From a virus (Duplodnaviria; Heunggongvirae; Uroviricota; Caudoviricetes), in the IMG/VR virus record IMGVR_UViG_3300025778_000009: DNA of 64,000 bases; one strand, written 5' to 3'. Below the pieces are notes generated by a model. That model saw nothing but the letters and a program-made list of their open reading frames with translations, searched no databases and was not told where the DNA came from. Position 1 is the stretch's first letter; each line of letters starts with the position of its first letter. The position numbers were made by a program, and so were the translations under genes. Shown in pieces: positions 4,719 to 19,276 of the stretch.

Positions 4719-5264
4719 ATGCTGAGCAAAAGTTCGATACCTGTATTACCTGCAGTAAATGACAATATAAATTATAATTTAGGAATGCAACCAGCTTCAC
4801 AGATTCAAGCTGGTTCTCCTCCTACAGATTATTTGTATGCTAGCCCAAATTTAACTTTTAATCCAGTTAATAACACTCTAGTAGTAAATTCTGCTATTGT
4901 TTTTAATAATACAGTTTCATACGGATATTCTCCTGGATACTTGTCAGCGTTATACTTTCAAATGAGCCAAGCAGGTGTTTTATACCCCTTTACTGGTACT
5001 AGTAGATGGTATGCACCTCGCAACCTAAGTATTAGTGCAGTTACTGCAAGAGTAGGTACAGCACCGACAGGTAATGCTATTGCAATTGCAATAAAAATAA
5101 ACGGTAGTACAGTTAATACTCTTACAATACCAATTGCTGGGCTAACTGCAGGTTTTACTGCAACTATAAATATGTCTGCAGGGGATTATATGACTATAGA
5201 TATTGTTACTGTAGGATCAATTACTGCTGGTTCAGATTTAAATGTAACATTTACATACAACTAA
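4719..5264 (+). CDS. Putative fibre-associated structural protein
   Basis: 181 aa, SD GAGG upstream; C-terminal beta-sandwich-like segment APTGNAIAIAIKING...AGDYMTIDIVTVGS. Confidence 0.5.
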   Translation: MLSKSSIPVLPAVNDNINYNLGMQPASQIQAGSPPTDYLYASPNLTFNPVNNTLVVNSAIVFNNTVSYGYSPGYLSALYFQMSQAGVLYPFTGTSRWYAPRNLSISAVTARVGTAPTGNAIAIAIKINGSTVNTLTIPIAGLTAGFTATINMSAGDYMTIDIVTVGSITAGSDLNVTFTYN

Positions 5265-10163: not shown

Positions 10164-10568
10164 ATGAAAACATTTGTTCAATACACTGGATGTTTTATTG
10201 ATGAAGAGTCTGATGTGGAAGGTATAATTGAAGAAAACTTTATTTCTTCTGGTGATGAAAATTACGAAGACTGGGGTGAGTTAAACGAAGAAGCTGAACA
10301 TGGCGGACGTCATGTTAAACTAGGTAAACCTTTCCTTACACCAGGTGGTCCAAAGAAAAGAGCCGTTTACGTTAAAAATGATAAAGGTAATGTAGTAAAA
10401 GTTAACTTTGGTGATCCGCATCTTTCAATTAAGAGAGATCAACCTGCAAGAAGAAAATCTTATAGAGCAAGACATCATTGTGAAACACCAGGACCAAGAT
10501 GGAAAGCTAATTATTGGTCATGTAAATATTGGTCATCAACACCAACATCTACATTGGATAAAGGTTAA
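10164..10568 (+). CDS. Conserved phage protein, candidate internal head protein
   Basis: MKTFVQY N-terminus, acidic leader, then EAEHGGRHVKLGKPF...VYVKNDKGNVVKVNFGDP...RRKSYRARHHC module. Confidence 0.6.
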   Translation: MKTFVQYTGCFIDEESDVEGIIEENFISSGDENYEDWGELNEEAEHGGRHVKLGKPFLTPGGPKKRAVYVKNDKGNVVKVNFGDPHLSIKRDQPARRKSYRARHHCETPGPRWKANYWSCKYWSSTPTSTLDKG

Positions 10569-10714
10569 TGATTACATTTAAGAAATTTGTAAGTGAAATA
10601 ACTATTCACGATGCAACTGGTAAAGTAGTAAAAATTAAAAAACAAAAAGTCAGGGAAATAGATGGTAAGATCCATATGGAATATCCTGGCAAAAGCAGAA
10701 GTTCTGAAAGGTAA
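10568..10714 (+). CDS. Small protein (48 aa) not in ORF track, candidate internal head protein
   Basis: ATG overlaps previous TAA; MITFKKFVSEITIHDATGKVVKIKKQKVREIDGKIHMEYPGKSRSSER; ends 5 nt before dps. Confidence 0.6.
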   Translation: MITFKKFVSEITIHDATGKVVKIKKQKVREIDGKIHMEYPGKSRSSER

Positions 10715-15033: not shown

Positions 15034-15744
15034 ATGATTATACAAGGTGTAACACTAAAAGGTATTACAGTAGCAGATTCTTATATTGTAAATCAAAATC
15101 TTGCTATCTGGATTGATGCAAATAACTCATCGAGTTATCCTGGTAGTGGAACAACCATTACAGATTTATCAGGAAATGGTCGCACGCAGAATTTACAAAA
15201 TGCTTCTCAATTCACTACATTAAGTGGTGTTAAATGTTGGGATTGTTCTAATCCTAGCACTTACAATGCAATATCTGCAGCATCTATAGGTCCAACTCTA
15301 CCTACATCAGGCTTTACATATATAGCATGGGCTAGAATGATTGCCAGTACGGCAACTTTTAGGACTTTATTTAGAACCAGCCCAAACGACCATCCTATTT
15401 TAATTAACACAGGAACCAACGACTTAGGTATGTGGGATAACTCAGTATCAATATTTTATCCGTGCGGATATAATGTAGCCGGCCTGGCTAATAAATGGGC
15501 TCAATGGGCTGTAACCGGTGACAGTTCAGGACAGTCATTTTATATAAACGGTCAGTACGTAGGAACAGTCACAGCACAAACATCTGCAGGTAACGCTCAC
15601 AATATCATAGGTAACGTTGGTTCAAGCTTTGGTGGAACGCAACCGTTTGGTTATATTGCAAATATGTTTTTATATACTTCTAAGCTTACGCAGACGCAAA
15701 TATTACAAAATTATGGTGCACATAGAAACGTGTTCGGGTTATAA
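15034..15744 (+). CDS. Concanavalin A-like lectin / LamG-domain protein
   Basis: LAIWIDANNSSSYPGSGTTITDLSGNG ... FYINGQYVG ... GYIANMFLYTSKLTQTQILQNY is the LamG-type pattern. Confidence 0.8.
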   Translation: MIIQGVTLKGITVADSYIVNQNLAIWIDANNSSSYPGSGTTITDLSGNGRTQNLQNASQFTTLSGVKCWDCSNPSTYNAISAASIGPTLPTSGFTYIAWARMIASTATFRTLFRTSPNDHPILINTGTNDLGMWDNSVSIFYPCGYNVAGLANKWAQWAVTGDSSGQSFYINGQYVGTVTAQTSAGNAHNIIGNVGSSFGGTQPFGYIANMFLYTSKLTQTQILQNYGAHRNVFGL

Positions 15745-15747
15745 ATA
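15740..15747 (+). promoter_or_regulatory. T4-type late promoter TATAAATA
   Basis: Exact motif overlapping the LamG stop, upstream of 15776. Confidence 0.7.
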
Positions 15748-16167: not shown

Positions 16168-17520
16168 ATGTTAGTAGATACAGTACTCACTTATCAATTT
16201 ATTAAAAAACTAACAACACCTTTTAATCAACTACCCGCATATAAAATGCATTTAATTGATGATAAAGGTAATTTTTTAAAAGCAAGAACTCAGTTTACTC
16301 CACAAGAAACAAAAGCTTGTGGTTTATTTGATGTTATGATTATCAATCTTAAAAAATTAATTGCTAAGATTCCTGGTGGTAGTTCTAGATTAGGTACTGT
16401 AGCTGCTACTTTAGTTCTTCTCAATTCTAAACCTATCCGTGAAAGCGTCGAGGATATTGATTTAGAAGAGCAATTTAACTACTACTACAACAAAATTAAA
16501 GATATTTCAGAAGAAGGTGCTGTAGCTGCTGCTCCTGTTAATAATGTTGCGTCAGGTGATATTGCTGGTATAGGTCAACCACCAGGTTCAGCAAAAGGTT
16601 TTCCTCCTGTATCTATAAACAACAAATATAAGAAAAAAAATATAGAAGATACTAAGAAAATGAAGCGCGGAATTATAGGCGCTCTTTCTATGAAGGAAGC
16701 TGAATCACATTATATTGAAAAAGTATTCCGTGATGACTATAAAGAAAAAAATGCTAAGCAAGAACCTAAATTAAACAAAATAACTAAAAAAATAAAAGTA
16801 TTCTCTAAATTCAAAGAAGACACTACATTAGAGTATCATGATGTTCTTAATCCTAAGATATGGGATGGAGCAGAGTTAAAATCAGAAGTAAGAGGTAAAC
16901 TATTACAGATTGCTGAGGCATGGAGAGAGTTTGCAAAGATTCACCCAGACACTGTAGTCAATATAATATTGACAGGCGGTAATGCAAACTATAATTATAC
17001 ACCTCAATCAGATTTAGATCTACACCTTATTATTAACAGAGGCGAATTTAACGGTAGTATGATTGACCGTGCTTTTGTTGATGAGTATCTACAAGATAAA
17101 AAAATTCTATGGACATTAACACACGGTGATATTAACATATATGGTTATCCTGTAGAGTTATATGCTCAAGATATTAATGATCAACCACATTCAGGTCAAG
17201 GTGTTTATTCAGTAAGCGGTAATTACTGGATGCAAGAACCAAAATATTTAAATCTTGATTTTGAATCTGATCCTAATTTGCAGGATAAAGTAGATTTCTA
17301 TAAAGATATGATTGATAAGTTAATTGATCAACAAGCAGATTCAGATGCTATAGATACTCTTAAAGATAGAATTAAAACTATGAGAGGCGACTCTATCGCA
17401 CAAGGTGGTGAGTTTGCTTTTGGTAATTTGGTATTCAAAGAACTACGTAATTCTGGTTATCTAGATAAACTATCAGATTATGATAGAACTAAAAAAGATA
17501 AAGCATTGTCATTAGGGTAA
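16168..17520 (+). CDS. Conserved T4-like N-terminal domain fused to a Pol-beta-superfamily nucleotidyltransferase domain
   Basis: N-term YQFIKKLTTPF...IDDKGNFLK; C-half IILTGGNANYNYTPQSDLDLHLII (hG[GS]x10DhD) and PVELYAQD third carboxylate. Confidence 0.7.
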   Translation: MLVDTVLTYQFIKKLTTPFNQLPAYKMHLIDDKGNFLKARTQFTPQETKACGLFDVMIINLKKLIAKIPGGSSRLGTVAATLVLLNSKPIRESVEDIDLEEQFNYYYNKIKDISEEGAVAAAPVNNVASGDIAGIGQPPGSAKGFPPVSINNKYKKKNIEDTKKMKRGIIGALSMKEAESHYIEKVFRDDYKEKNAKQEPKLNKITKKIKVFSKFKEDTTLEYHDVLNPKIWDGAELKSEVRGKLLQIAEAWREFAKIHPDTVVNIILTGGNANYNYTPQSDLDLHLIINRGEFNGSMIDRAFVDEYLQDKKILWTLTHGDINIYGYPVELYAQDINDQPHSGQGVYSVSGNYWMQEPKYLNLDFESDPNLQDKVDFYKDMIDKLIDQQADSDAIDTLKDRIKTMRGDSIAQGGEFAFGNLVFKELRNSGYLDKLSDYDRTKKDKALSLG

Positions 17521-17523
17521 AAA

Positions 17524-17904
17524 ATGATTATATTGAGATTTTTTCTATTTACTAGATTTGGTTTAATTATTACTATTATAGGTTCTTTAATTGGGGTATT
17601 TTATGGTTGGCTTTATATGCACGATCAGAGTATAATAACATCTGCTACAAATGCATATAATACTATGCAACAACAAATATATCAAAAGAAAGAAGAAGAA
17701 TTTGTACAAAAAACAATTACTCTTTCTAATGATGCAATTGATATAGCAAATGATGTTAATCATCAAAAACAAGATACTACCAACAATCTTAAGGCTATTG
17801 AAAGAAAAGCAATAGATGAAGCACCAGACGAGCAAAGACCATCTTCAGTATATTTGAAAAGTATTATTACACAATTGAACGAAATTTATGGTATGAAAAA
17901 ATGA
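17524..17904 (+). CDS. Putative inner-membrane spanin (Rz-like)
   Basis: Single N-terminal TM helix then predicted coiled coil; directly precedes a lipoprotein gene. Confidence 0.7.
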   Translation: MIILRFFLFTRFGLIITIIGSLIGVFYGWLYMHDQSIITSATNAYNTMQQQIYQKKEEEFVQKTITLSNDAIDIANDVNHQKQDTTNNLKAIERKAIDEAPDEQRPSSVYLKSIITQLNEIYGMKK

Positions 17905-18176
17905 AAAAACTTTTATTACTTTCTTCTTTACTATTAGCAGGTTGCAATCAAACTGTAAGTCTTTTGACTCCTGAATATAAATTAGTAAAGGCACCAGATA
18001 GTCTTTATGATTGCCCTACTGTTACAAAATTCCCTAAAGCAGATACTCTTACTGATGAACAAGTCGGTAAGTTATTATTAAAACTTCAAAGAAACAACGT
18101 TGCCTGTAAGAATTCAGCAGAAGCAGTTCGTAAATTCTATACAGAAGCAGAAAAAACTATAAACGATAAAAAATAA
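17901..18176 (+). CDS. Putative outer-membrane spanin lipoprotein (Rz1-like)
   Basis: Signal peptide with lipobox LLAG-C, Pro-rich, two further Cys; ATGA overlap with i-spanin. Confidence 0.75.
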   Translation: MKKLLLLSSLLLAGCNQTVSLLTPEYKLVKAPDSLYDCPTVTKFPKADTLTDEQVGKLLLKLQRNNVACKNSAEAVRKFYTEAEKTINDKK

Positions 18177-18235: not shown

Positions 18236-19276
18236 ATGAATTTACTATGGTTAGATCAGAAGTTTGCTTCACTTATCGGTACACAGCTTGAGCAATTTAA
18301 GGTAAAGAAAACAAAACCTTATATTGCTCAATTTCGTTGCCCTATATGCGGAGACTCACAATCTAGTAAATTTAAGACTAGAGGTCATTTATACGAGCAT
18401 TCTGGCCGTATTAATATGAAATGCTTTAATTGTGGTTACAGTACATCTCTTAGTAAATTTATTAAAACGCTTAATCCAGTACTATATACCGAGTATAGAC
18501 TTGAAACTCTTAAAGAGACTGGTGGTTCTGAGTCAGATGAAAAATTTATACCTGCTATCGAAAAATTCTCTACCAGAAGGGTTGATCACTTCGAACCTTT
18601 TAAAGAATTACGTAAGATTTCACAGTTAAAACCGGAACATCCAGCAAAAAAGTACATAGTTGACAGGCGTATTCCTTCTAATGCGCATTTTCAAATTTAT
18701 TATTCCCATACATACTATCACTGGGTAAATAATATACTACCAGAGAAGTTCAATGACAAGGCTCTTAAGTTAGATGAGCCTCGTATTGTATTTCCCTTCA
18801 TAGATGCTAAAGGATACGTATTTGGTTGTACAGGTCGTTCCATTAGTAAAGTATCCAATTTACGATATTCTACAGTAATATTCGATGATACAAAGGAAAA
18901 GTTATTTGGACTAGATTCTATTGATAAATCTAAAAGGGTTTATGTAGTTGAAGGTCCAATCGATAGTCTTTTCCTTGATAACTGTATTGCAATGGCAGGT
19001 TCTGATGTTATATTAGCCAATGTAGCAGATAGAGATAAAATAGTTGTTATATATGATAATGAACCACGTAACAAAGAAATTGTAAAGAAAATTGAGAAAG
19101 CTATTGATCAAGGATACAAAGTATGTATTTGGCCATCTAATATCGAGGAAAAAGACATCAACGATATGATATTAAAAGCTGATCTTACTGGCCCAGCAGT
19201 CCAGCATATTATTGACGCTAATACATTTGAAGGATTAACTGCAAAGATAATGCTTCAACAATGGAGAAAAGTATGA
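18236..19276 (+). CDS. 61: DNA primase (T4 gp61)
   Basis: Zn ribbon CPICGDS...KCFNCG, TOPRIM VVEGPIDSLF, DNEPRN, KDINDM. Confidence 0.93.
   Translation: MNLLWLDQKFASLIGTQLEQFKVKKTKPYIAQFRCPICGDSQSSKFKTRGHLYEHSGRINMKCFNCGYSTSLSKFIKTLNPVLYTEYRLETLKETGGSESDEKFIPAIEKFSTRRVDHFEPFKELRKISQLKPEHPAKKYIVDRRIPSNAHFQIYYSHTYYHWVNNILPEKFNDKALKLDEPRIVFPFIDAKGYVFGCTGRSISKVSNLRYSTVIFDDTKEKLFGLDSIDKSKRVYVVEGPIDSLFLDNCIAMAGSDVILANVADRDKIVVIYDNEPRNKEIVKKIEKAIDQGYKVCIWPSNIEEKDINDMILKADLTGPAVQHIIDANTFEGLTAKIMLQQWRKV

Follow-up and report, generated by a model that had tools for sequence, protein, structure and literature searches.

Does a phage enzyme that is translated behind a second, unrelated protein still reach the phage head, to be cut free there and carried with the DNA into the next host? 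This question is raised by one gene of a tailed phage (Duplodnaviria, Heunggongvirae, Uroviricota, Caudoviricetes; IMG/VR record IMGVR_UViG_3300025778_000009), of which a stretch of 64,000 nucleotides, the window, was analysed. The gene encodes a protein of 450 residues, which an initial annotation made from the sequence alone took for a nucleotidyltransferase (NTase) of the Pol-beta family that follows a capsid-targeting-like motif, is released in the head and is injected. The open reading frame (ORF) and every motif string quoted in that annotation were found in place. What it had regarded as linkers, residues 1-175, is to judge from alignment a complete protein of the T4 gp61.1 family, and the gene is a fusion, which the annotation had missed. 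Based on the evidence set out below we propose, as the rather probable course of events, that the late-expressed precursor is taken up into the prohead, where a gp21-type protease cuts it at the junction, and that an NTase of ~27 kDa is delivered together with the DNA to the next host.

The junction between a gp61.1-like protein and a nucleotidyltransferase

The capsid-targeting system of T4 is textbook knowledge, drawn mainly from a few coliphage proteins. Its capsid-targeting sequence (CTS) consists of the first ten residues of IPIII, among which residues 4 and 7 are mainly responsible for targeting and residues 8 and 10 for processing, and the protease gp21 cuts after L/I-x-E (PMC9026906). 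The sequence xxE is also cut by gp21, more weakly. In the window protein the decapeptide IKVFSKFKED (Table 1) lies within KIKVFSKFKE/DTT (residues 208-220; the slash, here and below, marks a candidate cut), and aligns residue for residue with MKTFSKFCEQ, the start of a stand-alone NTase homologue, at equal spacing to the conserved LEYH. Other stand-alone homologues begin with MQSFTKFIEE, MLEFGQFISE, MLSFKNYILE or MKDFNTFLTE, CTS-like N-termini in which F/Y fills positions 4 and 7, L/I position 8 and E position 10. Among 93 stand-alone representatives the pattern M..[FYW]..[FYW][LIVM].E is matched by 10, against 0.014 expected from composition, and a relaxed form by 31, figures that overstate independence, the sequences being related; in IMG/VR the strict form is found in 14 of 48 stand-alone NTase genes, most of which start with M-x-x-[FY]. 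As several family members are leaderless and start with M(R/K)FH(D/E)ELNP, the NTase fold does not need the leader.

The fused forms carry the motif as well. Of a set of 118 fused homologues, 105 have Glu at position -2 and 113 have [LIVFM]-x-E ahead of the domain, most showing L/I/V-x-E at the candidate cut where the window has F-K-E/D. When the NTase is fused to three other N-terminal partners it is preceded by GFANFLKE, RFSEYLSE, SFSLFMSE, PFIRFLSE or L-x-E/TKIS (e.g. GLVE/TKIS). By these alignments the junction motif is homologous to the real T4-type CTS N-termini of the stand-alone homologues. To this extent the capsid-targeting-like motif of the initial annotation stands, but it is internal and its processing residues are noncanonical.

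Some of these arrangements deserve a description of their own. Eight loci (L050, L051, L054, L063, L069, L072, L082 and L099) encode an unrelated N-domain of ~170 residues (..PRFKARVAKI..) that is fused through L-x-E/TKIS to the same NTase. A polyprotein of 783 amino acids (L104:4570-6921) has the CTS start MNPFLTYLTE and an internal PFIRFLSE just before its NTase (residues 475-706), which suggests a multi-module cargo that is cut apart. In P0108 and its relatives (junction ..RKMKKKLKEE/SSLQYH) an in-frame Met is found where stand-alone NTases start (compare MKKLISELK of phage S-CREM2), and this subclade might make the NTase separately as well as in the fusion; in the window the codon at this place is ATA (Ile). 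For the window gene an internal start giving a separate NTase was rejected, there being no ATG, GTG or TTG codon and no Shine-Dalgarno sequence at the junction.

The N-terminal partner belongs to the gp61.1 family both by its match to PHROG profiles and by its position upstream of the primase gene, and tblastn with the N-terminal domain finds genes annotated as gp61.1 in Aeh1, PX29, CC31 and Acj61. Stand-alone gp61.1-like proteins of 150-200 amino acids, which adjoin the primase in phiM12, Melnitz and Melville, align to about residue 175 and end in the same KYKKKN..KR tail; since they align that far and share the basic tail, residues 1-175 are, as far as alignment can tell, a complete gp61.1-family protein. 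The AlphaFold2 model of residues 1-95 is all-alpha with a pLDDT of 87. Foldseek gave no fold match for this domain at E <= 0.001 and the best hit of the VIA structure search had Z 4.5, Pfam and NCBIfam gave no hit, ESM Atlas gave viral unknowns only, and a literature search returned nothing on the function of gp61.1. The label "capsid protein" carried by two homologues of the N-domain was given no weight, as it fits poorly with a small all-alpha model.

Full-length homologues of the fusion protein number more than 100, with identity down to 46%, and 16 of 18 related IMG/VR loci carry the fused gene, which would have arisen once in evolution by the joining of a complete gp61.1-family protein (residues 1-~175) to a capsid-targeted Pol-beta-type NTase. 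Among longer proteins no partner of the gp61.1-like domain was found besides this NTase, and the idea of gp61.1-like proteins as general cargo carriers was rejected on that ground. An origin of the fusion from adjacent genes was also rejected: in S-CRM01 the gene upstream of the stand-alone NTase, g126, is unrelated both to the N-domain and to DUF7207, the family encoded just upstream of the fusion gene. In two loci with a stand-alone gp61.1-like gene no NTase lies within 6 kb.

Table 1. Features of the fusion gene and of the region upstream of it, in window coordinates.
Feature	Coordinates	Strand	Remarks
TATAAATA, T4-type late-promoter box	15740..15747	+	exact match, 29 nt upstream of the DUF7207 gene
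DUF7207 / phrog_407 gene, 129 aa	15776..16165	+	function-unknown family; Pfam PF23837, E 2.6e-39
Whole fusion ORF	16168..17520	+	450 aa, ATG start
Helical domain, T4 gp61.1 family, residues 1-95	16168..16452	+	phrog_18642, E 1.4e-27; phrog_2086, E 1.5e-16
Acidic variable linker, conserved PVN..G.IAG.G and basic KYKKKN..KR tail, residues 96-175	16453..16692	+	end of the ancestral gp61.1-like protein
Fusion junction, residues 176-208	16693..16791	+	hypervariable in length and sequence; indels up to about 60 columns in alignment A1
IKVFSKFKED, putative internal CTS remnant, residues 209-218	16792..16821	+	F212 = position 4; F215 = position 7; E217 candidate cut
Pol-beta-type NTase core (to ~365) and C-terminal helical bundle (~366-450), residues 219-450	16822..17517	+	phrog_36119, E 1.9e-71
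Catalytic motif ILTGGNANYNYTPQSDLDLHLI: G270-G271, ten residues, D282-L-D284	16975..17019	+	invariant in the 23-homologue alignment
E330, third carboxylate (VELY; YPVELYAQD)	17155..17157	+	invariant in fused forms, at least 90% kept in the family

Evidence for packaging of the nucleotidyltransferase family

Evidence from virions comes from Synechococcus phage S-CREM2, whose ORF156 (WNL51075.1) is a stand-alone NTase homologue of 237 amino acids, 48.6% identical, with the short leader MKKLISELK. In the published proteome of CsCl-purified particles ORF156 (126012-126725) is listed in Table 3 of that study with 6 unique peptides and 15.2% coverage, where it is called a hypothetical protein; a targeting sequence is not mentioned (PMC10665884). 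When the S-CREM2 genome (OR473000.1) was scanned at 4,841 candidate starts with the pattern M..[FYWL]..[FYW][LIVMF].E, 8 starts fitted, of which 6 are annotated gene starts, and 5 of these 6 genes are represented in the virion proteome, against 52 of 219 overall (p = 0.0032). The five are an S-adenosylmethionine (SAM) hydrolase (MKDFDSFLEE), a kinase (KRFDAFLTE, after a GTG start codon), a cytidylyltransferase (MKNFSSFLTE), ORF13 and ORF136. The rule M-x-x-[FY]-x-x-[FY]-[LI]-x-E retrospectively explains how the SAM hydrolase, kinase and cytidylyltransferase, "regulatory" enzymes of S-CREM2, come to be in cyanophage particles, and the CTS start argues against contamination. As regards the corresponding genes gp6, gp13, gp14, gp136 and gp154 (loci L028-L031), the SAM hydrolase, the APH/ChoK-like kinase and the cytidylyltransferase share the start M-K-x-F-x-x-F-L-x-E. 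A literature search for virion proteomics of phage Molly, which also carries the NTase, returned none.

The tag is found in the immediate relatives of the window too. Just downstream of the fused gene, one close relative (L035) has genes starting with MKTYFTFMKE, MKTFINFISE and MKSFSDFVDE, and another (L038) a gene starting with MKSFIEFIKE; overall, 23 of 998 neighbour genes carry the strict tag, against 0.33 expected. An ORF of 48 amino acids at window position 10568 starts with MITFKKFVSE; of the window's 514 ATG-started ORFs no other fits the strict pattern. Judged by these starts, the canonical CTS is used by the clade of the window. The adjacent ORF at 10164 (134 aa, phrog_7595) starts with MKTFVQY, and the small ORFs of 10164-10714 are candidates for internal head proteins. 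Packaging is well supported for the NTase family; for the fused protein of the window we infer it.

The course that we propose for the fused protein would begin with late transcription from the TATAAATA box at 15740, predicted to read through the DUF7207 gene and the fusion gene coupled to it. The precursor would then enter the prohead core by way of the CTS-like IKVFSKFKED or through another contact, and a gp21-type prohead protease would cut after E217, possibly also after E92, E101 and E115, to give the ~27 kDa enzyme of residues 218-450. Ejected with the DNA, this enzyme would transfer a nucleotide from NTP to some acceptor early in infection.

Several observations weigh against packaging of the window protein. 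The decapeptide is not N-terminal but lies behind about 208 residues, and the T4 experiments were made with N-terminal tags only. Position 8 is Lys and Glu stands at position 9, followed by Asp, where T4 has L/I at 8 and Glu at 10; in the proposed F-K-E/D cut the P3 residue is Phe and not L/I. Both CTS aromatics are kept in only 25 of the 118 fused homologues, and the Glu before the domain could be partly a structural feature, since it is found in stand-alone forms too. ISEE (residues 113-116) and MKEA (residues 181-184), pointed out at first in the linkers, are present, but [LI]-x-E sites are no more numerous in the fusion protein than expected from shuffled sequences, so that taken by themselves the two strings carry no weight. 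Neither the prohead protease gene nor the capsid genes fall within the window, and the cut rule is that of T4 gp21, which may not be that of this phage. Proteins of the gp61.1 family are not known as virion components, phiM12 gp161 not being annotated as one. The S-CREM2 study itself cautions that proteins present in abundance may be carried along when virions are purified (PMC10665884). The structural matches reach only Z 5-6.6, and we know of no homologue of the NTase with demonstrated activity.

Lying inside the protein and with degenerate processing residues, the tag could be vestigial after the fusion, the 450-residue protein remaining unpackaged as a late enzyme of the producing cell's cytoplasm, perhaps with the role of gp61.1 beside the primase. 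The place of the gene next to those of primase and ribonucleotide reductase, like that of gp61.1 in genomes of the phiM12, Melville and S-CRM01 type, is in line with this, as is the fact that gp61.1-like proteins are not annotated as virion proteins. Yet hydrophobic-x-Glu is kept at the junction in 96% of the fused homologues despite the hypervariable linker that precedes it, the same motif stands before the NTase in independent fusions, the T4 internal-protein genes likewise lie outside the head module, and a stand-alone homologue has been found in virions. We consider a purely cytoplasmic enzyme, the strongest rival to our proposal, possible, though doubtful.

It is quite improbable that M-K-x-F-x-x-F-L-x-E is simply a structural N-terminal element of the NTase fold, the detection of the S-CREM2 protein being due to co-purification and no member of the family being a targeted cargo. 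The motif is inherited with the domain, so part of its enrichment reflects common descent, the S-CREM2 study advises caution about contamination, as noted above, and the coverage of ORF156 is modest (6 peptides, 15.2%). However, leaderless members of the family exist, the same leader is carried by unrelated S-CREM2 enzymes, with 5 of 6 carriers being virion proteins, and by unrelated neighbour genes (the 23 of 998, against 0.33 expected), and the key positions match those of the mutationally defined T4 CTS.

The nucleotidyltransferase domain

The profile matched by the domain, phrog_36119, is listed in PHROGs as "unknown function". Conservation was read from alignment A1, of 23 full-length fused homologues, and alignment A2, of 73 family members. 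G270, G271, D282, D284 and E330 are invariant in the former, and one Gly of G270-G271, D282, D284, H286, W354, R406, K424 and R427 in the latter; E330 is placed on strand 112-120 of the predicted model. The intact GG-x10-DLD motif and the third acidic residue described at first (G270-D284 and E330) are thereby confirmed and are conserved across homologues. The AlphaFold model (pLDDT 95.5) shows an alpha/beta core followed by a bundle of three to four helices, and comparison by Foldseek and by a further structure search bears out the predicted fold, a Pol-beta-type core with an intact catalytic triad. Core matches are 1ylq (Z 6.6, 87 aa), 2rff (Z 6.2, 105 aa), TENT5 (Z 6.0), AadA (Z 5.9-6.0), CdnD/E (Z 5.6-5.9), and OAS, cGAS and MNT (Z about 5); these scores are modest, all core matches belong to the Pol-beta superfamily, and several of its branches score about equally.

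The only match spanning both domains is AadA 4cs6 (158 residues, Z 5.9, root-mean-square deviation 6.0, 10% identity), and the best Foldseek match in the PDB is ANT(9) (E 7.8e-4, TM about 0.27); no sequence-level match to aminoglycoside nucleotidyltransferases was found. CD-NTases match over the core only (Z 5.5-5.9, Foldseek E 1e-3 to 1e-2), and PADLOC gives PDC-S09 (E 7.5e-4) and PDC-M70A (E 0.015), both without description, over the GG..DxD stretch. PF01909 (NTP_transf_2) falls just short of its gathering score, with 20.8 bits for a cut-off of 21 (E 5e-4, residues 250-303), and given this near miss the family is, as its sequences indicate, a divergent branch. Attempts to name the enzyme more closely were abandoned. 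By sequence, PF01909 was reached below threshold only, NCBIfam and PADLOC gave nothing usable and the profile search against PDB sequences gave E >= 0.17. By structure, the second comparison gave Z <= 6.2 over many Pol-beta branches with none standing out; a wide VIA search with the NTase model was dominated by generic helical bundles, and a viral structure library returned uncharacterised family members only. From the conserved residues and the model we read the domain as an active, divergent Pol-beta-type nucleotidyltransferase.

No PF01743 match and no CCA-adding enzyme appeared in the fold lists, although absence from such lists does not exclude one. With a Pol-beta superfamily fold, TENT5/FAM46 and poly(A) polymerases among its structural matches (Z 4.6-6.0) and a transfer-messenger RNA (tmRNA) encoded by the phage, the domain could be imagined to work on RNA 3' ends, adding CCA or tails to the tmRNA or to a microhelix, in line with the initial annotation. 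This is hardly credible. The domain has only about 233 residues, in which no RNA-binding neck, body or tail is recognised; matches to RNA polymerases are limited to the shared core, with scores no higher than those of MNT, AadA and CD-NTases; Pfam gives PF01909 only and below threshold; and the family occurs in phages without that tmRNA. CCA addition to the microhelix, in particular, finds no support, as none of the neck, body and tail domains of CCA enzymes is recognised. The minimal core with a helical bundle and without RNA-binding domains points, on the model, to transfer onto a protein or small molecule and away from a polymerase or CCA role.

The family is large: an exhaustive profile search (E <= 0.001) collected 3,705 clusters at 50% identity, most of them stand-alone proteins of ~240 amino acids, of which annotated phages account for only 45 records. 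These records belong to cluster-C T4-like cyanophages, Caulobacter phage Cr30, Maribacter phages Molly and Colly, and Lak and other huge phages. We offer only as a speculation, and an unlikely one, that the CTS decapeptide is a portable, position-independent "address plus cut here", that the gp61.1-like part is a removable pro-domain keeping the NTase inactive in the producing cell until the head protease frees the enzyme, and that the injected NTase nucleotidylates a host defence or translation component. If this were true, a large class of first-strike effectors of phages, some 3,700 clusters strong, would have gone unrecognised.

Gene context and known systems

The window is part of a T4-like myovirus, with baseplate genes 48/53/5/25/6/7, a gp61-type primase and a ribonucleotide reductase. 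The last two are the neighbours of the fusion gene, the primase gene beginning at 18236, ~0.7 kb downstream. Upstream, the stop of the DUF7207 gene lies 2 nt before the fusion ATG at 16168, and because of this spacing the two genes are probably co-transcribed and translationally coupled; coupling of a DUF7207 gene to a gp61.1-like gene is present in 18 of 18 related loci. DUF7207 (phrog_407) is found in 764 records, among them T4-like cyanophages and phages of Salmonella, Klebsiella, Dickeya and other enterobacteria.

The TATAAATA box is rarer in the window than expected (9 against 17.8). It occurs at -60 in six loci and at about -430 to -475 in four further loci and the window, that is, in 10 of the 18 related loci plus the window, the expected count per 700 nt being about 0.05-0.1. 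Late expression of the fusion gene is predicted from this box, which precedes the DUF7207 gene coupled to it and which relatives have kept. The description of the gene as late-promoter-driven is right in that an exact box is present, but the box precedes the DUF7207 gene and not the fusion ORF itself. Further downstream, an overlapping pair of genes (17524-18176) encodes a protein of 126 amino acids with an N-terminal membrane helix and a lipoprotein of 91 amino acids (lipobox LLAGC; Pfam LysC, E 1.1e-4; PHROG Rz-like spanin, E 1.1e-5); the pair looks like an i-spanin and o-spanin in the same late unit as the fusion gene.

Our results tie a very large unnamed family of phage enzymes to the T4 capsid-targeting system and assign published virion evidence to an NTase homologue previously listed as a hypothetical protein. 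The persistence of the tag at internal domain junctions suggests that cargo can be delivered as cuttable fusions, and if the acceptor is a host defence or translation factor, the enzyme would be a new kind of injected counter-measure.

As for the enzyme, the MNT/KNTase type (PF01909; MNT antitoxins, 2rff, 1ylq) and AadA/ANT(3'')(9) share with it G[GS]-x9-13-SD-x-D, the third carboxylate and the alpha/beta core, whereas the phage family is about 10-14% identical to them, is found only in phages and has a signature of its own, LEYHxxLNPxxW, QGVYS and GEFxxxNLxFKxLRNxGYLDK. S-CREM2 ORF156 has the same catalytic motifs, is identical over the whole domain to the extent given above, and occupies a similar place in a T4-like phage, ahead of the genes for primase and ribonucleotide reductase; unlike the window protein it stands alone with a short leader, and the S-CREM2 paper does not identify it as a nucleotidyltransferase. 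In the T4 gp61.1 family, hypothetical proteins encoded beside primase gene 61, residues 1-175 are a member of full length and share the family's place ahead of the primase gene, but in cultured phages the protein is separate and the NTase fusion is confined to one uncultured clade.

As for the route, IPI, IPII, IPIII and Alt of T4 are directed by the CTS, processed by gp21 and ejected. Stand-alone NTase homologues carry the same leader, with its aromatics (positions 4 and 7), its L/I (position 8) and its Glu (position 10). The window protein, too, is predicted to be expressed late and cut after hydrophobic-x-Glu, and Alt is a precedent for an enzyme as cargo. Here, however, the cargo is a Pol-beta-type NTase and not an ADP-ribosyltransferase or a small basic inhibitor, and the putative tag is internal, behind an unrelated protein of ~208 residues, with processing residues that differ from those of T4. 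In giant phages of the phiKZ type, head proteins have long N-terminal propeptides and are cut several times after Glu by a gp21-related protease, and the window protein has several candidate sites; the evidence for those propeptides comes from mass spectrometry and from another lineage of phages, whereas the "propeptide" of the window is a conserved gp61.1-family protein that also occurs independently. The mechanism that we propose is the one by which T4 delivers Alt and its internal proteins; new to it are the cargo, an NTase family that is very large and unnamed, the internal tag and the gp61.1-like partner.

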